Shown here: positions 5,604 to 59,750 of the stretch, in pieces | How the letters are laid out: each line of letters begins with the position of its first letter | Numbering within the stretch: the first letter of the stretch is position 1 | Source: Candidatus Zixiibacteriota bacterium | GTDB lineage: Bacteria > Zixibacteria > MSB-5A5 > GN15 > FEB-12 | Direction: 5' to 3' | Assembly: GCA_024280215.1 (NCBI GenBank) | Contig: JAJRQO010000022.1 | Coordinates: forward strand, 6,910 to 70,909 | DNA length: 64,000 nt | The notes under the pieces: generated by a model | Told to the model about the DNA's origin: nothing | Database searches by the model: none | Seen by the model: the letters and a program-made list of their open reading frames with translations, nothing else | Translations under genes and position numbers: made by a program

Positions 5604-6462
5604 CTTGAATAGTTCCGTGTCCTATCTTAAATTTTTCTTTTAGCATGGAATTTAATGCTCTTGTTAGTGCAGGAGCGTCAGGTAGATCAGACTCGCCTAC
5701 ACAAATATGGCAAGAGAGGGCAATTTCTTTTGATGAGAGAGACCAGATATGTAAATCGTGCACATCAATAATTTTTTCAAATACCATCATTTCTGTGTGA
5801 ACTTTATCAAAGTCAATTCCTGCAGGTACCGCTTCCAAAAAGACAAGGGTTGCTTCTTTTATAACAGAATAAGATGACCAAAGAATCATAAGAGCAATAA
5901 CAAACGACAAAAAGACATCAATGATATATAAGTCTGTCATTATTATAACAATACCGCCGATGATGACCGCTACCGATGAAAGAGCATCGTATGCCATGTG
6001 TAAAAATGCGGTTTTCATGTTAAGCGATTTCCCTTTTTCAGAATGCAGCAATAATATAGAGACAATATTCCCGATTAAACCAATTACAGAAACAGTCAGA
6101 AACATAACTGGATACTTCAACTCTTGGGGATTGTAAAATCTATCATAAGCCTCAGCCATAATAAAAATAGAGATAACTACCAATGAGACTGCCGAAATAA
6201 AAGCAGTCATTACTTCAATACGTAAATACCCATATGTCGATTTTTTTGTCGCAGGGAGTTCAGAACCTTTGGCACCAAGCCATGCTAAAATAAGAGCAGC
6301 GACATCGGAAAGATTATGGATTGCATCTGAAATGAGAGCTAAATATCCTGAGAGAATACCACCGATAAACTCAGCGATAGTGATTATTAAGTTGAAGATA
6401 ATAGTCCAGAAAAGTTTTTTTCCTGAAACTTGCTGATGGTCGTGTGAGTGTGCCATTGTCAA
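5530..6462 (-). CDS. Cation diffusion facilitator (CDF) family divalent-metal efflux transporter
   Basis: 310 aa. His-rich N- and C-termini, six predicted TM segments, and the CDF signature SDAIHNLSDV / LHMAYDALSS. Confidence 0.85.
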   Translation of the reverse strand: MTMAHSHDHQQVSGKKLFWTIIFNLIITIAEFIGGILSGYLALISDAIHNLSDVAALILAWLGAKGSELPATKKSTYGYLRIEVMTAFISAVSLVVISIFIMAEAYDRFYNPQELKYPVMFLTVSVIGLIGNIVSILLLHSEKGKSLNMKTAFLHMAYDALSSVAVIIGGIVIIMTDLYIIDVFLSFVIALMILWSSYSVIKEATLVFLEAVPAGIDFDKVHTEMMVFEKIIDVHDLHIWSLSSKEIALSCHICVGESDLPDAPALTRALNSMLKEKFKIGHGTIQVETHECDNSELLCTHTHNDKHHSH

Positions 6463-6495
6463 TAATATACGAAATCTAAGTATTGAAAGAAATAA

Positions 6496-6978
6496 CTATT
6501 TTAGCTCTTTTATAAGCAGATTGATTGCTTGCATGTGGTAAGTTTCGTGGTAACCAATTGCTAAAACAGCATCATGAAATGAGTTGAGGGTCATTCCAAA
6601 TGAAACATGGGCGGGTTCATCGTATTGTTTGTCAGCATAGAAGTGTAAGTCTTTTTCTAAGACAGTTATTGATTCTTTTAGTTCAGTTAAAAGTCTTTCA
6701 AATGTAGGAGTTTCAGAATCAAAATTGGCGGGGGAGGAACCTTTGGCAAAATATCCCAAATATTTCTCATCAATGATTGGCATAACGATATTTGAGCGAC
6801 GGTATATAAGAGAAATTTGGGTCGTTAGAATATGACCTGCTTGCCAGAGCAAATTATTAGAAAATTTATCAGGAATCAGAAGCGATTGTTCTTGGCTAAT
6901 ACTTTCAAGAAGAGAAATGTTTTTGTAACGTATGAAAACAAGATTTGAGAAGGCATGTTCGCGAAGTTCTTTTTCCAT
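6496..6978 (-). CDS. DinB-family (DinB_2-like) four-helix-bundle protein
   Basis: 160 aa. Spaced His residues (GHILTT ... HETYHMQ) resemble the DinB metal triad. Confidence 0.55.
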   Translation of the reverse strand: MEKELREHAFSNLVFIRYKNISLLESISQEQSLLIPDKFSNNLLWQAGHILTTQISLIYRRSNIVMPIIDEKYLGYFAKGSSPANFDSETPTFERLLTELKESITVLEKDLHFYADKQYDEPAHVSFGMTLNSFHDAVLAIGYHETYHMQAINLLIKELK

Positions 6979-6980
6979 AA

Positions 6981-7646
6981 TTATCCTTTGATAAGTTTAA
7001 GAGCAAAAAATCCTAAGAATAAAAGCAAAACGAATGCGACTGCTAAGAGATTGAAATATTTGTCAATGAATTCCTGTATTTTATTTCCATACTTTTTGTA
7101 CATCATACCGATAGTTCCAGCTACAGCAAAAAATCGAAGCGGTCTGCTAATAGCTGATGCGACGACAAAAGGAATAAAACTCATTTTGAAAAATCCAGCA
7201 GCGATAGTGAATACTTTATAAGGTATAGGAGTGAAGCCTGCAATACCAACAGCCCACGGACCGACTTGCATGCCAAACATTTCTTTTTCATTAAACCAAT
7301 GATTGGCAACGGTCAGAAGTTCTTCGGGAGTTGTGCCAGAGATTGATGCGGTCATTGACATCATCGTCTCGCCAATCAATTCAAAGGCGTACATGCCTAT
7401 GAAGTAGCCAACGATACCACCAATAACAGAGCCAGCCGAACAGATAAGAGCAAAACGAACCCACTTTTTGTGGTCACCCATACAGAGTGCGATAAGAAGT
7501 GTGTCGGGGGGAATTGGGAAAAATGACGCTTCCGCAAGTGAGAGGAAAAAGAGTGCTGCTTGGGAGTTTTTGGAATGGCTCCATTTGAGAACCCAATCGT
7601 AAAGTGAACGCATCCATCTGAGAGGAGCCAGCAATATATGTAGCAC
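6981..7646 (-). CDS. YqaA/DedA-like (SNARE-associated) membrane protein
   Basis: 221 aa. Motif LAEASFFPIPPDTLL and multiple TM segments. Only 2 nt from the next gene. Confidence 0.7.
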   Translation of the reverse strand: MLHILLAPLRWMRSLYDWVLKWSHSKNSQAALFFLSLAEASFFPIPPDTLLIALCMGDHKKWVRFALICSAGSVIGGIVGYFIGMYAFELIGETMMSMTASISGTTPEELLTVANHWFNEKEMFGMQVGPWAVGIAGFTPIPYKVFTIAAGFFKMSFIPFVVASAISRPLRFFAVAGTIGMMYKKYGNKIQEFIDKYFNLLAVAFVLLLFLGFFALKLIKG

Positions 7647-51618: not shown

Positions 51619-54600
51619 ATGGAGGGTGTTATGAGTCAAAAGTTAAAGATTGTAAGTTTGGTATTAGTCTTGGTTGTATTCTGTTTGTCAGCGATTGTTT
51701 CATCAGCTTCAAAAGAACAGGCAGTAAAAAAGAAAATTACCCATTATAAACAAAAGGTCGAAAAATTTGCTGGTGGCGAAGATGAACAACAAATTGGAAC
51801 AGCATCACATTCGACAAAACCAATCTCACAAATAAGCAGAAGTGCATCGTCAGTATCGCCTGGTATTGCTGTTGGTAATACGTGGTATGATTATCAGCAT
51901 AACGGTTCAATAGGACGTATGATTGACTGGGGTAACGATCCGAATTCAAGTGGTCGAGCAATTGTCCATTTTGGATGGATGAAGCTCCCCGGAGCTGCCT
52001 TTGTAGAACGCAACTATGCCTACAACCATTATAATGCCGATTTAGGAGTGTTGGGGATTTCTTCTGATGTACAACCAACAGATGAATATGCTGGTTTTGT
52101 GAATATTGCATCAGCTTATGATGCAAGTGCCTTGATTGGGGGACATAATGACCAAGGTTCTGGAAATCAGACTCATCTTTATTCAGATTTTTCTGCGGGG
52201 TTTGCTTTCTGGAGTGGTACTCGTGTACCTGATTCTGTCGCTGCCTATGGTGCAGTAGCTCATGCAGTCATTTGGCCAAAATTTGCATATCAAGAAGGAA
52301 CAGATACGGTAACTCACGTTATAGCACAAGTATCATCAGCAGGTGCTGGAGACCCTCAAGCAATTTACTATTTTCGTAAAGTTGGCGTGAATCATACGGG
52401 GCTCTGGGATTATCCACCATATATAGTCGACACAATTTTTGACCTTTCTCATGATATCACCGCCTCGAGAACATCTGATAAAGTTGCTATGGTCTGGACT
52501 GCAAATTTGGCATACGAGCCAGGTACAACTGACGGCACTATGAACGCATCGTGTGATACCTGTTCCGATACATCACCATTTTCGCTACAATGGGACAATG
52601 ATATCTATTACCAAATGTCTGATGACCAAGGTCTTACATGGAACCCACGAGTCAATGTCACCAAATCACAATATGGTGAAGCAGGCTTTCGTGCCTATAC
52701 CGATTTATCTTGTCTGATTGATTCCAATGAAGATTTACATATTATTTGGTCAGCGATTCCGTGGGATGCTGATGTTGCTAATACATTTTTAGATTCACAA
52801 TGTCGCTTGTTTCATTATTCCGAAAATGTTCCTTTTATTAGAACTGTGGCAAATGCTGAGTGGGCAACATCTCAACCAAATGGCGACGCTACTTTTGAGT
52901 GCGGTCCGGGTGCTTGGAATATATTTATTTCCAAAATGCAAATTTCTGAATGTGATGGAAAAATGTATGCGATGTGGGTACAGTTTCAAGATTTGCCAAA
53001 TGGTGTCACCGACGATTGCGCCGCACGTGCATCAACAGAATACTCAGGTTCTGCCAATGGTGAACTCTATATCTCGGTTTCATCCGATGGTGGAGCGACA
53101 TGGGATATCGCGCGAAATCTGACAAATTCACGTACCCCAGGATGCGACCCAAATGGTGGTTTTGGCGATTGTGAATCTGACAACTGGGCATCGATGGCGG
53201 AATATGGGAGACAAAATATCGCAGGCGAAGATTGGGGAACTGCTGTGGTAGTCGATCCATCGGGCTCCTATGCGGGTAACTATTACCTTGATATACAATA
53301 TGTACATGATAGAGATGCGGGGGGGATAGTTAAAGGTGAAGGGACATGGCAACTCTCAAATATCAATTGGTTCCGTATGGCTTGCGTAGAACCTGAGCCT
53401 GCACCACAAATTGCTTTTTCACCACAAAATATTGATGCACCAACTTGGACAAAGCCATCTATCGAGTTATCTCTTGATTTGAATATTGAAAATAATGGGA
53501 ACGTCGCATTAACATATTCGATAACTATTGAAGAAGATAATGGAACAGCAGGATGGTTAGCGGTTTCGGGGCTGTCTGGTGCAGTTCCATCAGGACTTTC
53601 AAATCTTGAGGTCGGAACTCTCCATCTCAATAATGGGGGAGTGCAAGCTACTGAAGCAGGGATTACTGGGCGCCTTATTATTAATTCAAACGCTCCTTCT
53701 TCTCCTGACACACTTGAAGTGATTCTATTAGTCCTTGCTGATCATATTTCTCCTTCTCCTCCTGACACAGTGCAAGGTTATTTGTCTCTTGCGGTTAACA
53801 ATACAGGAAACTATGGTAACAGCGGTGACAATAGAATCAATTTAGATTTTGTTACTAATGGTGCCGAATGTGATTCAACCGCATCTGTATACCTCTATGA
53901 TGCCTCTCCTGTTATTTTACAAATTAATGGTTCAGATACATCACTCGCTGGTTCTATATTTGATGATAACTGGTTGTCACCAAACGGTTTTAGACCACAA
54001 GGGAGTCCATCAAATGGTTCCGAAGCGACTTACAATTGGTATACGACGGGAGTATTCTCTACACCAGATTCAACGATTGGGTTTGAGCAAACATTTTATG
54101 CCCCGACCGCATTAGGTGCGAACTATATACTCAAAAAATTAAAAGTCTTTTCATTCGATGGTGCCGCACATGCTGGTCTCAGAATCGGTGATGCTATCGA
54201 CTGGGATATACCATCTGATACGGGTGCATGGAACAAAGCAGCATTTGATGTAACACGTAATTTGATTTATCAAATCGGTGCTGAATTCGATCAACATGAT
54301 ACTCTTGATAACGGTTCTATCAATCCTCAAGGCGATGACTGCGTTGATGCCAACAGACGTTTTGGGGGAATGGCGTTTTTGAAATCTATTCTTAATGGTG
54401 TTGATGGCGATGAATTCCCTCATTCGGCATACACCGCTCGTAATGATTCCTTTGTTTTGCCAAATAGTAACTTTGTTGCGGGAGAACTTTGGGATAACAT
54501 GGGAGCATCTGGTTACAACGTTGAAACTGATGTAGAAGATCAACACATGGTTATGTGTTACGATGACAATTTATCGCTTGGAGCAACAGACACCGTAGAA

Positions 54601-54933
54601 TACTGGATCGCGTTAGTTACGGTACAAGATGGAACTTCAGCCGACATCCAAGCAGCAGCAGATTCTGCTGAAGCATTTTTATATTCAAGATTCTTCTCAT
54701 GTTGTGTTGGAAATCGTGGAAATATTGACGGTGGTCCAGATGATGGTACTGACAGTTCTATTGACATTAGTGATTTGGTTTATATGGTTGCCTATATGTT
54801 TCAAGATGGTCCTGCCCCTCCGTGTTTAGAGGAAGCCGACTGTAATGGTGACGGTGACATTGATATTGCTGATTTAGTCTGTATGGTATCATACATGTTC
54901 CAAAGTGGTTTCAATCCTGCCCCTTGTCCATAG
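51619..54933 (+). CDS. Large secreted BNR/sialidase-like beta-propeller protein with a C-terminal Cys-flanked dockerin-like double EF-hand module
   Basis: Signal peptide. Two canonical BNR motifs (SDDQGLTW, SSDGGATW). C-terminus CCVGNRGNIDGG..IDISDLVYMVAYMF and DCNGDGDIDIADLVCMVSYMF. The probable start is the ATG at 51631 (GGAGGG RBS). Confidence 0.7.
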   Translation: MEGVMSQKLKIVSLVLVLVVFCLSAIVSSASKEQAVKKKITHYKQKVEKFAGGEDEQQIGTASHSTKPISQISRSASSVSPGIAVGNTWYDYQHNGSIGRMIDWGNDPNSSGRAIVHFGWMKLPGAAFVERNYAYNHYNADLGVLGISSDVQPTDEYAGFVNIASAYDASALIGGHNDQGSGNQTHLYSDFSAGFAFWSGTRVPDSVAAYGAVAHAVIWPKFAYQEGTDTVTHVIAQVSSAGAGDPQAIYYFRKVGVNHTGLWDYPPYIVDTIFDLSHDITASRTSDKVAMVWTANLAYEPGTTDGTMNASCDTCSDTSPFSLQWDNDIYYQMSDDQGLTWNPRVNVTKSQYGEAGFRAYTDLSCLIDSNEDLHIIWSAIPWDADVANTFLDSQCRLFHYSENVPFIRTVANAEWATSQPNGDATFECGPGAWNIFISKMQISECDGKMYAMWVQFQDLPNGVTDDCAARASTEYSGSANGELYISVSSDGGATWDIARNLTNSRTPGCDPNGGFGDCESDNWASMAEYGRQNIAGEDWGTAVVVDPSGSYAGNYYLDIQYVHDRDAGGIVKGEGTWQLSNINWFRMACVEPEPAPQIAFSPQNIDAPTWTKPSIELSLDLNIENNGNVALTYSITIEEDNGTAGWLAVSGLSGAVPSGLSNLEVGTLHLNNGGVQATEAGITGRLIINSNAPSSPDTLEVILLVLADHISPSPPDTVQGYLSLAVNNTGNYGNSGDNRINLDFVTNGAECDSTASVYLYDASPVILQINGSDTSLAGSIFDDNWLSPNGFRPQGSPSNGSEATYNWYTTGVFSTPDSTIGFEQTFYAPTALGANYILKKLKVFSFDGAAHAGLRIGDAIDWDIPSDTGAWNKAAFDVTRNLIYQIGAEFDQHDTLDNGSINPQGDDCVDANRRFGGMAFLKSILNGVDGDEFPHSAYTARNDSFVLPNSNFVAGELWDNMGASGYNVETDVEDQHMVMCYDDNLSLGATDTVEYWIALVTVQDGTSADIQAAADSAEAFLYSRFFSCCVGNRGNIDGGPDDGTDSSIDISDLVYMVAYMFQDGPAPPCLEEADCNGDGDIDIADLVCMVSYMFQSGFNPAPCP

Positions 54934-54982
54934 AGATGAAAATTTATAATATGAATTAAAACTACTTATAAGACTTAACCTG

Positions 54983-56614
54983 TTATTTCAGATAACGGGT
55001 TGGGTCGGTTAGTTTGCCATTGACAGCCGAGGCTGCCGCAGTAGCAGGGGAACAAAGATAGATTTCTGAATCATCAGTACTGAGTGATCCAAAGAGATTA
55101 TAATTTGATGTGACCAAAGCACGTTCACCCTTGGCAAGAAGTTTACATCCGCAGTCTAAAGCATTGTGCGAACCTGGGAACAAAATTGTCGCTCCTGCTT
55201 CAACCAATACACGAATTAGCCCTTTTTTGAGTGCTTCCAAATAAACAGATCGCGAACCAGGGTAGACGATCAGTCTACAGTCAGGCGATAAACGTCGTCC
55301 TTTTAGAATCTCTGCTGCAGATCGTAAATCTTCAAAACGTCCGTTATTGGATGTCCCAATTACAATCATATCAACTCTGATATTTTCAAGTTCTGATAAG
55401 TTATTGATTTTATCCTCTTTGCAATTTGCTGCAAGAGGTTTTAAACTCTCTATTTGAAATTGATAGAGATTTTCATATTCAGCATTTTTATCAGCGATGA
55501 TTGGATTATAATGTTCCAAAGTTCTACCCGTCAGGTACCGACGAGTCACCGAATCAAATGGACATATCGCCGAAACAACACCTAATTTTTGTGAGAGATT
55601 ACAAAGGGTGAATCGTTCAGCAATCGACATCTGAGAGATTACATTGCCATAAAATTCAATAGTTTTTCCAGAAAGATTTTCATTGTGCAACTCTTTAAGC
55701 AAATGAAGTGCTATGTCTTTGCCATAAACCCCTCGAGAACGTCGCCCATTGATTTCAATTCGAACTGTCTTTGGTACTTTGATGCTAATTTTTCCCGTTG
55801 ACCAAATTTGAGGAATCAACTTTTCAGGAATTGTTTGAGCATACGATGAAATCGCCCCATGCGAAAGAGTATGTGAATCGGAACCGACTACAAATTGTCC
55901 TGGGAGAATTTTACCACTTTCAAGCATAACTTGATGCGAGCAACCATCGGAGGATTCGAAAAATCCTTTGATACCTTGACGTTTAACAAATTCACGTATT
56001 TGTTTGTCACTCTCTGGAGTTGAACCATTATTTTGAAAATGAGTTCGAGTCAATGAAATAGCTATTTTGTTTGGGTTCCAAACCAAATCGGTATTGGAAT
56101 CTAAAAATGATTGTAGGATTTGAGAACAGTTACCATTTGATAGGACTACATCGGGTTCAATTTCATATTGGTTATCTATTTCAATTGATTCCGTATCAAG
56201 TTGAGTCGCTATTACTTTTTGAATAATAGTTTGTTTATTATAAAGAGAAACTGCTCCAGAGTTGAGTTTTAAACCAGGAAAATTAAGCTCGAGCTGTTCG
56301 AGTTTGAGAAATGCAGGTTTTTCTTTAATATTATATTTACGACGCCAATTATAAAAAGCAGCTTTGGAAATTCCTAACTCCATTCCACACTTATCATCAT
56401 CGCCGTAGCGTTCCCATAAATTCAGTATCTCTTTTTCTGAAAATTTAGGTTGTGAATGTTTGGCGACATTTTTTTTGCGACGCCAGTAGGCAACCAAGTA
56501 TGCAGGAACCCCGCCCAAACGTTCACCAATTTTTTCATCAGTTTTGTATAAACGTTGCAGTTGTATAAGTTCAGACTTTGTAGGAATCTTCTTTTTAGCC
56601 ATGGTAATTATCAA
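54983..56614 (-). CDS. Aconitase/LeuC-fold protein lacking the Fe-S cysteine ligands, with a duplicated N-terminal HTH module
   Basis: Residues ~130-543 align to the 3-isopropylmalate dehydratase large subunit (VVGSDSHT..., VIGTSNNGRFEDLRSAAEI, SPATAAASAVNG). The positions GSCTN and PGCSMC read GTSNN and PGSHNA. Residues 1-100 contain two HTH-like repeats ending in W(R)RRK. The likely start is the ATG at 56602. Confidence 0.75.
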   Translation of the reverse strand: MIITMAKKKIPTKSELIQLQRLYKTDEKIGERLGGVPAYLVAYWRRKKNVAKHSQPKFSEKEILNLWERYGDDDKCGMELGISKAAFYNWRRKYNIKEKPAFLKLEQLELNFPGLKLNSGAVSLYNKQTIIQKVIATQLDTESIEIDNQYEIEPDVVLSNGNCSQILQSFLDSNTDLVWNPNKIAISLTRTHFQNNGSTPESDKQIREFVKRQGIKGFFESSDGCSHQVMLESGKILPGQFVVGSDSHTLSHGAISSYAQTIPEKLIPQIWSTGKISIKVPKTVRIEINGRRSRGVYGKDIALHLLKELHNENLSGKTIEFYGNVISQMSIAERFTLCNLSQKLGVVSAICPFDSVTRRYLTGRTLEHYNPIIADKNAEYENLYQFQIESLKPLAANCKEDKINNLSELENIRVDMIVIGTSNNGRFEDLRSAAEILKGRRLSPDCRLIVYPGSRSVYLEALKKGLIRVLVEAGATILFPGSHNALDCGCKLLAKGERALVTSNYNLFGSLSTDDSEIYLCSPATAAASAVNGKLTDPTRYLK

Positions 56615-57089
56615 ACTCTTTTTTTAACGCTTTGTAACATGGCTCGAGCGGAATCGAAATAACATCTGTTTTGCCAATAACAGGCATAAAATTAGTATCA
56701 CCAATCCAACGAGGCACAACATGCATATGTAAATGTCCTGGAACACCCGCACCAGATGAACGACCGAGGTTCATGCCAATATTAAGCGAGTCAGGTTTGA
56801 AAATCTTTTTGATAAATTTAACTGTCTGTTGAGTCAGAGCCATAAATTCAATCGATTCAGCAACAGTCAATTTTTCTAATTGACCAATATGACGTTTTGG
56901 AATTATGAGTGTATGCCCAGTATTGTATGGGAATTTATTGAGAATAATGATACACTTTTTACCTCGATAGACAATAAGATTTTTCACGCTATCTTTTGTT
57001 TTTAAGCGATTGCAAAAAACACAACCTTTCTCTTTTTTCGAGAGTATAAAGTTAGCCCTCCACGGAGCCCATAATTTATTTTCATCCAT
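56595..57089 (-). CDS. HIT-family nucleotide hydrolase/transferase
   Basis: 164 aa. Histidine triad GHLHMHVVPR, plus the N-terminal WAPWR...CVFC seen in the Ap4A-phosphorylase-like HIT subgroup. Confidence 0.85.
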   Translation of the reverse strand: MDENKLWAPWRANFILSKKEKGCVFCNRLKTKDSVKNLIVYRGKKCIIILNKFPYNTGHTLIIPKRHIGQLEKLTVAESIEFMALTQQTVKFIKKIFKPDSLNIGMNLGRSSGAGVPGHLHMHVVPRWIGDTNFMPVIGKTDVISIPLEPCYKALKKEFDNYHG

Positions 57090-57305
57090 GTGGACAACAT
57101 ACTATAAAAATTGATATTTATCAACCATATATATGGCAGTCTTTTACGACCGCTCGCAACTCATTGAGTGACAACAAAAAACGATTCTTCTGAAGATATT
57201 TTATTTCTCTTGCGAAGGCGATTATTTATCCACATCTTTAACTGTTTACTATAAAGCAGATTAGTTACTTTTATTTCATAAATAACGAATAAAGGAATTA
57301 TATAT

Positions 57306-58738: not shown

Positions 58739-58781
58739 TATTTTTTTGTTGAATATTAAGACTCGTTCTATATTTTTCAAT

Positions 58782-59750
58782 ATGGAAAAGAACCCGCTCC
58801 CACGTCTTGATACAAAAGTAGAAGAACTTCGTAATCATTTACTTCCATTTTGTCGTTTATCTATTGGAGACACGTGGACTGACCCTCAAGGGAAACACCA
58901 TATCGCTTGTGGAGATTCATCAGATAAAAACTTTATCAAACAACTTTTTAATAAAAACCAAGCTGTCTTGGCGGTTCATGACCCTCCATATAACTTAGTT
59001 ATGTTTGAAAAACAATCGGTCGATGAATTTATCGACTGGTCTTACAAATGGATTGAAAATAGCTATGATGTGCTTTCCGAAAATTCTGCTTTGTATATTT
59101 GGCTGGGTGCCGATCAAAATGATAATTTCCAACCTCTGCCACAATTTATGCTGATGATGGGCGAGACCGAATTTAAGTCAAGATCATTTATCACTATGCG
59201 AAACCAACGGGGGTATGGAACGCAAAAAAACTGGATGGCGATTAGACAAGAGTTGCTATACTATACCAAAGGCAACCCTGACTATTCGGTGCAATACACA
59301 GATATTCCAAAAATCCTCAAAGGCTACTATAAAGAAATCGACGGAAAAATGACTGACAATTCAGAACGTGGAAAATCGCCAACAATTCGTTCGGGGAATG
59401 TTTGGGTTGATATTCAGCAGGTTTTTTATCGCATGCAGGAAAATGTCAATGGTTGTTATGGGCAGAAACCGCTCAAAGCAATTGAACGGATTATAGAAGC
59501 ATCATCCAATGAAAACGACTTAATAACCGATTTTTTCTCGCACTCAGGTACAACTGTTATGGCGGCAGAGTTGACAAATCGTAAATGTATCACAATTGAC
59601 ATCGACCCGATTTTTGCTGAAATTTCGATTCGTCGTATAGAATATTTTAGAAAAACTGGTAAGACAGGATGGCAGGCATCGAACCCATTTGCCAAAGAAC
59701 TCTCAAAATTAAATAAGAATCAATTAGAAGAAATCGGCATCATAGTGTAA
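58782..59750 (+). CDS. DNA methyltransferase, beta-class N6-adenine/N4-cytosine type (solitary)
   Basis: Motif IV DPPYN (VHDPPYNLV) precedes motif I (DFFSHSGTTVMAAE), i.e. the beta permutation. No nuclease gene is adjacent. The ATG at 58782 is preferred over the TTG at 58746. Confidence 0.8.
   Translation: MEKNPLPRLDTKVEELRNHLLPFCRLSIGDTWTDPQGKHHIACGDSSDKNFIKQLFNKNQAVLAVHDPPYNLVMFEKQSVDEFIDWSYKWIENSYDVLSENSALYIWLGADQNDNFQPLPQFMLMMGETEFKSRSFITMRNQRGYGTQKNWMAIRQELLYYTKGNPDYSVQYTDIPKILKGYYKEIDGKMTDNSERGKSPTIRSGNVWVDIQQVFYRMQENVNGCYGQKPLKAIERIIEASSNENDLITDFFSHSGTTVMAAELTNRKCITIDIDPIFAEISIRRIEYFRKTGKTGWQASNPFAKELSKLNKNQLEEIGIIV

Follow-up and report, generated by a model that had tools for sequence, protein, structure and literature searches.

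The gene pair described here lies on the minus strand of a 64,000-nucleotide stretch of a Candidatus Zixiibacteriota bacterium genome (the window; GenBank assembly GCA_024280215.1, contig JAJRQO010000022.1, positions 6,910 to 70,909 of the forward strand). It encodes a HIT-family protein followed by a protein in which two helix-turn-helix (HTH) repeats, the head, precede an aconitase-superfamily body that has lost its iron-sulfur (Fe-S) ligands and most of its catalytic residues (Table 1). An original prediction, made by a model from the letters alone, had proposed an aconitase-fold pseudoenzyme with an added HTH module, coupled to a HIT gene and acting as a ligand-sensing transcription factor. 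The open reading frame (ORF) listing gave two overlapping ORFs on this strand, 54983..56614 and the HIT ORF 56595..57089. The TTG at 56614 is a mechanical ORF start only. The ATG at 56602 fits the orthologue N-termini, with the protein read from it beginning MAKKKIPTK and the orthologues starting M-(A/S)-x-(K/R)-K-I-P-T-K, and both the sequence and these N-termini agree with the predicted start that overlaps the HIT stop by 8 nt. Residue numbers count from this ATG and are lower by four than those given before (Ser422 there is Ser418 here). A mis-called start or merged ORF as the source of the N-terminal extension was checked and ruled out, as more than 200 full-length orthologues have the same architecture of about 540 aa, with starts overlapping the HIT stop. 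A protein 100% identical to the window product was present in public data (P0001).

Table 1. Features of the gene pair in the window. AF2, AlphaFold2; residues are numbered from the ATG at 56602.
Feature	Position	Strand	Details	Basis
HIT-family gene, predicted Ap4A-phosphorylase/ATP-adenylyltransferase type	56595..57089	-	164 aa; first operon gene	Pfam HIT; 3ano
Promoter-like TTGATA-17 nt-TATGTT	57096..57124	-	ends 6 nt before HIT ATG 57089	pattern scan
HIT stop / downstream ATG overlap, 8 nt	56595..56602	-	TAA 56597-56595; ccATGGCTAA, ATG GCT AAA in second frame	
HTHx2 / pseudo-HacA-LeuC gene	54983..56602	-	stop codon 54983-54985; coding 54986-56602; 539 aa	
HTH repeat 1	56465..56581	-	residues 8-46, TKSELIQLQRLYKTDEKIGERLGGVPAYLVAYWRRKKNV; helices 9-19, 22-28, 34-43	internal repeat; AF2
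HTH repeat 2	56327..56440	-	residues 55-92, SEKEILNLWERYGDDDKCGMELGISKAAFYNWRRKYNI; helices 56-66, 69-76, 80-89	internal repeat; AF2
Invariant head tail	56273..56323	-	residues 94-110, EKPAFLKLEQLELNFPG; short amphipathic helix	invariant columns in family alignment
Aconitase-superfamily body, HacA/LeuC large-subunit type	54986..56233	-	residues 124-539	profile, structure-database and fold matches
Ser418 codon, first cluster Cys position	55349..55351	-	GSCTNGR to GTSNNGR	HacA alignment
Ser478 to Ala481, second and third cluster Cys positions	55160..55171	-	PGCGPC to PGSHNA	HacA and aconitase alignments

The body was identified by profile, structure-database and fold comparisons. A profile scan of the window protein matched Pfam Aconitase at E=1.1e-62. 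In the NCBIfam model PRK00402 (LeuC/HacA large subunit), residues 124-534 aligned to model positions 1-414 of 415 with 357.9 bits, just short of the curated cutoff of 385, and the cutoffs of the enzyme-specific NCBIfam equivalog models were all missed widely. The closest solved structures were Methanocaldococcus jannaschii HacA (PDB 4kp2, E=1e-71) and the large subunit of isopropylmalate isomerase (IPMI; 2e-65), and identity between the body and the M. jannaschii HacA and IPMI large subunits was about 33%. An AF2 model of the window protein, made from a 25-sequence alignment, had a mean predicted local distance difference test score (pLDDT) of 84.3 and matched 4kp2 and 4kp1 with a target-normalised template modelling (TM) score of 0.88-0.90 (E about 1e-43). 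Pfam, PRK00402, 4kp2 and the predicted fold all bear out the full-length alignment to a LeuC/HacA large subunit that had been read from the sequence at the outset. The protein stops at the end of domain 3 and is without domain 4, the LeuD equivalent. No LeuD-like or Aconitase_C small-subunit gene was found in ten neighbouring window ORFs scanned with Pfam or in the annotated homologous loci, in agreement with the predicted absence of an adjacent small-subunit gene. The body is neutral (pI 7.2), whereas the head is basic (pI 9.7). PF28406, which is pre-computed on some homologues, was considered as a name for the head and rejected, as it is AcnX_3rd, a part of the aconitase body.

Motif substitutions were read residue by residue from alignments to HacA and to mitochondrial aconitase. 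These alignments confirmed that all three 4Fe-4S ligand cysteines are substituted (Ser418, Ser478 and Ala481), and the HacA alignment likewise confirmed TSNYNLFGS in place of the substrate-binding TTNRNFKGR, with both substrate arginines (the R447 and R452 equivalents) replaced by Tyr and Ser. The N...E of tlcNMaiEmG reads N...K. The catalytic Asp-His dyad, on which the original prediction was silent, is gone as well (fDHnvp reads lTRthf, giving T-R). GSDSHT, HQ and NGR are still present in the window protein, and from the catalytic and substrate set (Asp-His, Asp-Ser-His, Asn-Arg...Arg) only Asp-Ser-His remains. The retention of GSDSHT that had been stressed earlier is correct for the window protein but does not extend to the family, in which the motif is kept only in near relatives. 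Other cysteines, including C334, C347, C442, C484, C486 and C517, were checked as substitute cluster ligands and rejected on conservation. C484 and C486, which belong to a DCGC motif lying 3-5 residues past the old ligand site, were found only in relatives at least 83% identical. Where members lack the family-conserved C347, C442 or C517, they have Leu, Ile, Val or Ala instead, and these cysteines are therefore better explained as buried residues than as metal ligands. By descent the alignments place the body in the HacA/LeuC branch of the aconitase superfamily, not as a functional member of it, and judged by sequence it fails three of the four defining functional features of a LeuC/HacA large subunit, namely the Cys ligands, the catalytic and substrate residues, and the adjacent small subunit. 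Hundreds of public entries read "3-isopropylmalate dehydratase large subunit" or "aconitase family protein"; the first of these labels is probably wrong for these proteins, and such annotation can falsely credit Zixibacteria genomes with a step of the leucine or lysine pathway.

The head was analysed by internal comparison, structure prediction and homology search. Local alignment of its two halves scored 56, against 21.3 +/- 4.0 for shuffled sequences, with 0 of 2000 shuffles scoring as high, and the AF2 model of residues 1-118 contains two three-helix bundles with pLDDT >90. The tail that follows carries a predicted helix at residues 97-106, with pLDDT <50 for residues 101-117 and predicted disorder past the helix, and leads into a variable linker (residues 111-123) with 46% identity. 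A head-only phmmer search of 1.84 billion representative proteins gave 132 matches, down to 5e-23. The non-family matches were proteins of 2-11 tandem copies of the same unit of about 48 residues (consensus ...LxxLQxxYxTDxxIAxxLGVSxxTVxxWRKKxGIP...), which score Pfam HTH_23 at 1e-18 to 2e-60 in addition to transposase, resolvase and Cro-type HTH families. The top Foldseek analogues of the head were the Mos1 mariner bipartite HTH domain (probability 0.90, E=0.067) and Myb repeats, and further fold matches were phage transposases, homing-endonuclease-type HTH tandems and GcrA-like proteins (best E=0.0024). The internal repeat, the predicted three-helix bundles and the HTH_23 tandem homology together support the earlier description of the N-terminal module as a duplicated HTH, and there are good grounds in sequence and model to expect that the head binds DNA. 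The metagenomic proteins P0150, P0160, P0161, P0164, P0171 and P0185 consist almost wholly of such HTH_23-type repeats.

A database search returned 968 relatives of the window protein. The best 120 of the 968 had lengths of 536-554 aa, at least 98% query coverage and 50-85% identity, and their named sources were mostly Zixibacteria or GN15 metagenome-assembled genomes (MAGs), with a few labelled otherwise. Relatives were encoded in 189 genomes (GTDB, one genome per species). All family members come from MAGs, some of which carry non-Zixibacteria labels (Ignavibacteriales, Calditrichota, Deferrimicrobium), and the related loci were examined as about 13 kb of DNA per genome. Taken by its sequences, the architecture marks a Zixibacteria-wide orthologue group.

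Conservation differs strongly between the two parts of the protein. Among 25 spread members, mean pairwise identity was 87% over residues 5-110 and 49% over the body, and among 79 genomic loci it was 81% for the head and 46% for the body. Codon identity at identical amino acids was 0.43 in the head and 0.38 in the body. Because synonymous codons vary about equally in both, the constraint acts on the protein, and a nucleotide-level element behind the invariant N-terminal coding region was rejected. In the body, no ligand Cys is left in 98 of 227 distinct members (43%), one is left in 81, two in 30, and all three in 18 (8%). The first-ligand column has Cys in 87 members and otherwise G, L, A, S or E, the second and third columns have Cys in 57 and 51, and the DH dyad is kept by only 11. 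The alignment columns that correspond to S166, H167, R447 and R452 belong to the most variable ones, and cluster, catalytic and substrate positions as a whole are hypervariable across orthologues. Pseudoenzyme status would thus hold for the family and not just for this genome. As the former active-site columns are hypervariable while the head is near-invariant, the ancestral pocket appears to be under relaxed selection, and a conserved ligand at that site is unlikely.

Some members have kept more of the ancestral enzyme. P0115, P0117 and L072 are near-canonical at several motifs (DH, CHQ, GSCTNGR, PGCGxC), and the orthologue group appears to range by degrees from a possible cluster binder to a protein wholly without a cluster, which offers a view of cofactor loss in progress, from members with three Cys, DH and CHQ to fully decayed ones. 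P0101, P0098 and L052 were noted together with these three among the three-Cys or near-canonical members, with P0115 and P0101 as examples that have all three Cys, and in L072 and L052 the gene lies at about 6001-7620. At the other end, the divergent Zixibacteria members P0132 and P0136 have domain 1 deletions and barely match Pfam Aconitase, and their heads are still about 60% identical. Fairly conserved residues of the cleft are D151, H223/Q224, D242, R422 and T498, and conserved basic body residues that are specific to the family and absent from HacA and IPMI are R354, R355, K460 and R464.

The HIT protein has an intact histidine triad (HLHMHVVPR) and matched Pfam HIT at 3.4e-21 and Mycobacterium tuberculosis Ap4A (diadenosine tetraphosphate) phosphorylase (PDB 3ano) at 2e-34. 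Its match to the NCBIfam ATP adenylyltransferase model (4.3e-44, 150 bits) was below the cutoff of 290. These matches place it in the Ap4A-phosphorylase branch of the HIT superfamily, and its enzyme activity is predicted. In 83 of 83 related loci the gene immediately upstream, on the same strand, is a HIT gene with 53-80% identity. Across 84 junctions including that of the window, the overlap was ATGA (4 nt) in 61, 37 nt in 11, and another short length (1-11 nt) in 10; there was a gap of 1-2 nt in two, and the start was unassignable in one. Both the HIT linkage and the translational coupling claimed for the window therefore recur in the family, the first at all 83 loci and the second, as a stop/start overlap, at nearly all junctions, and the overlap has the form of a translational-coupling junction. 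Most of 79 loci have a common geometry upstream of the HIT gene, with an A-tract near -55, TTTG (-35) at -37, TATNNT (-10) at -14 to -9, and CT before the ATG. The promoter position suggests a leaderless or near-leaderless bicistronic mRNA, from which the second gene would be translated by coupling. No HIT fusion (Rosetta stone) with the HTH/pseudo-aconitase family was found among the database matches. Directly next to the -35 element of this promoter is a perfect 12-nt palindrome, CCATATATATGG (57125-57136). Of the relatives, only the closest, L004, was seen to have a similar sequence, so the palindrome does not serve the family as a general operator.

These comparisons establish the domain architecture, the loss of catalytic residues, the conservation pattern and the obligatory coupling of the two genes. 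The reading that we favour, and to which we give about an even chance, is that of a DNA-binding regulator with a non-catalytic aconitase-fold body that is functionally tied to the HIT protein. The head would be a bipartite DNA-binding module of two HTH_23/transposase-type repeats under extreme purifying selection, with the basic linker between them probably placed in the minor groove, like that of paired and Tc1-mariner domains. The body, by its sequence a non-catalytic former homoaconitase/IPM-isomerase large subunit without a small-subunit partner, may persist as a folded scaffold that serves in oligomerisation, in binding a partner or in allosteric control. The leaderless bicistronic mRNA and translational coupling would yield HIT protein and regulator in fixed proportion in every Zixibacterium, and as the two are coupled they would be produced together and most likely serve one pathway, possibly one that links transcriptional control to dinucleoside-polyphosphate or adenylyl-nucleotide metabolism. 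In this scheme DNA binding, the regulatory role and cooperation with the HIT protein are what we infer.

Several observations weigh against this reading. Direct Pfam matches of the head were sub-threshold (HTH_Tnp_1 0.016 and HTH_23 0.18, residues 75-94), and its fold matches were weak (E 0.002-0.07, TM about 0.3), the low TM scores being attributed to the flexible link between the two HTH units. Identity of 87% over 106 residues exceeds what is usual for a transcription-factor DNA-binding domain, and the head may have a partner other than DNA or in addition to it, for instance RNA polymerase, an RNA or the HIT protein itself. The 8% of members that keep all three Cys could, by their sequences, still hold a cluster. 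Autoregulation through an operator upstream of the HIT gene was unsupported, as neither k-mer enrichment nor a positional profile of 79 loci gave an operator-like motif beyond the -35, -10 and A-tract features.

The first alternative is that the protein is a nucleic-acid-binding targeting subunit, which would bring the HIT protein as a nucleotidyl-transferase or hydrolase to DNA or RNA, for example for the removal of Np4N caps or 5'-adenylates. It would be a split aprataxin, with the dead body docking a HIT dimer in the place of LeuD. HIT enzymes in other systems work on nucleic-acid ends, and aprataxin carries its HIT domain on one chain with a DNA-binding zinc finger. The invariable adjacency with its stop/start overlaps, the leaderless bicistronic layout, by which both proteins would be made in a set ratio, the four family-specific basic body residues, and a fold kept while its pocket was lost, as would be the case for a protein-protein scaffold, are all in line with this model. 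It is made doubtful by the lack of a HIT fusion protein among the family matches and by the HIT protein being an ordinary member of a widespread branch, that of the Ap4A phosphorylases, which acts on free dinucleotides, and we rate it as unlikely.

The second alternative is the ligand-sensing transcription factor of the original prediction, in which a small molecule, perhaps a nucleotide that the HIT protein makes or destroys, occupies the old cleft and controls how the HTH head binds DNA. An HTH joined to an enzyme-derived domain is a common transcription-factor design (MocR/GabR, NrtR, RpiR), a few cleft residues are fairly conserved as listed above, and the HIT coupling fits. The cluster and substrate positions are nevertheless hypervariable despite a near-invariant head and a constant HIT partner, GSDSHT is kept in near relatives only, and some orthologues have deletions in domain 1. 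The pseudoenzyme and HTH-fusion parts of that proposal stand, the part that concerns sensing by the old pocket is weakened by the hypervariable pocket and the body deletions, and the model as a whole has a low probability. A further-reaching proposal, which we regard as a long shot, is that the body replaced its lost LeuD-type partner with the HIT protein to form a DNA- or RNA-tethered nucleotidyl-transferase/hydrolase complex specific to Zixibacteria, either an aprataxin-like split machine or an Ap4A-responsive regulator, in a family that would also record graded Fe-S loss.

An active Fe-S hydro-lyase, that is, a divergent LeuC/HacA that uses the other cysteines and has its small subunit elsewhere, is very improbable. 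The full-length fold with GSDSHT, HQ and NGR, the DCGC motif and the canonical Cys triad in 18 of 227 relatives would speak for it, but the candidate cysteines are either confined to close relatives or vary as buried residues do, the DH dyad and both substrate arginines are gone, no LeuD neighbour was found at any examined locus, and the score was under every NCBIfam enzyme cutoff. An IRP1-like RNA binder, in which the cluster-free fold clamps an RNA stem-loop with the help of the basic N-terminal module, is scarcely credible. Cluster-less superfamily proteins (IRP1, bacterial apo-aconitases) do bind RNA, and IRP1 and IRP2 were among the structural matches. Against it, these matches were distant (sequence E about 1e-10; TM normalised to the query 0.35-0.57), IRP1 requires an opened four-domain cleft in which domains 3 and 4 clamp an IRE stem-loop, domain 4 is absent here, and the window has no Rfam element.

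The favoured DNA-binding regulator was compared with known systems. HacA MJ1003 and IPMI MJ0499 (PDB 4kp2 and 4kp1; PRK00402, TIGR01343) have the same three-domain fold over the full length and many structural motifs in common with the window protein, which differs from them in having no Cys ligands, Asp-His dyad, substrate arginines or adjacent small subunit and in carrying a 120-residue HTH head. IRP1, IRP2 and the apo-aconitases likewise show the aconitase superfamily in a regulatory role that involves nucleic acids, as is proposed here, and IRP2 is a recognised non-catalytic member of the superfamily. The IRPs, however, bind RNA by the four-domain fold itself, domain 4 included, and keep their Cys ligands, whereas the window protein has a separate HTH, no domain 4 and a likely DNA target, and the IRP1 parallel drawn in the original prediction stands as an analogy only. 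MocR/GabR (HTH and aminotransferase), NrtR (Nudix-like and winged HTH) and RpiR (HTH and SIS) also have an HTH fused to a dead or repurposed enzyme fold, but they conserve the old active site as an effector site, while in the window family no part is less conserved than the old active site. An effector site at a new place on the fold is conceivable. Like Mos1 (Tc1/mariner), the IS-type transposases and the paired domain, the head has two three-helix HTH units and a basic linker; unlike the transposases, the protein has no transposase catalytic domain, its head is far more conserved, and it is encoded by a single-copy chromosomal gene with conserved synteny. The HIT partner resembles the Ap4A phosphorylase Rv2613c (3ano) in its HxHxHxx triad and N-terminal W-x-P-x-R motif region, and is shorter (164 against 218 aa in the crystallised chain) and below the NCBIfam equivalog cutoff. 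Its link to a predicted DNA-binding partner was seen in Zixibacteria, the phylum examined.

Literature searches gave no example of an aconitase-fold effector domain in HTH regulators, and no description of this family was found in full-text literature. If the favoured reading is true, this would be the first aconitase-superfamily domain that serves as a non-catalytic part of an HTH DNA-binding protein, which would widen the list of recycled enzyme folds, and with a conservation pattern reversed from that of the usual enzyme-derived regulators, as the ancestral pocket is not the conserved part. As the gene pair is phylum-wide, it probably has a core function in this uncultured phylum, and its strict coupling to an Ap4A-phosphorylase-type HIT protein provides a handle on dinucleoside polyphosphates and gene regulation.

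Other genes near the operon are conserved only in part. Of 81 related loci, 36 have a DNA methylase gene no more than a few kb from the HIT operon; an outer membrane protein (OMP) beta-barrel gene was counted in 31 loci and an NmrA-like gene in 13. These were rejected as conserved neighbours comparable to the HIT gene and represent partial synteny only. In the window, an N6/N4 DNA methyltransferase (Pfam 1.7e-31) is encoded at 58746-59750 (+), and the scan of neighbouring ORFs showed no restriction enzyme to go with it. In several other Zixibacteria the aconitase-like gene is directly followed by peroxiredoxin (AhpC-TSA/Redoxin) genes (L001 7727-9134; L002 7665-8369), which is not so in the window. 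Rfam and tRNA scans of the window were empty. An ORF of 1104 aa (51619-54933, +), convergent with the aconitase-like gene, begins with a signal-like hydrophobic segment, had no Pfam match at E<=1e-4, and has a duplicated Cys/Asp-rich, dockerin-like segment at its C-terminus (..DISDLVYMVAYMFQDG.. and ..DIADLVCMVSYMFQSG..). Between the two convergent genes, a hairpin with a 16-bp stem (54972-55006) overlaps the last codons of the aconitase-like gene and may be a bidirectional terminator.

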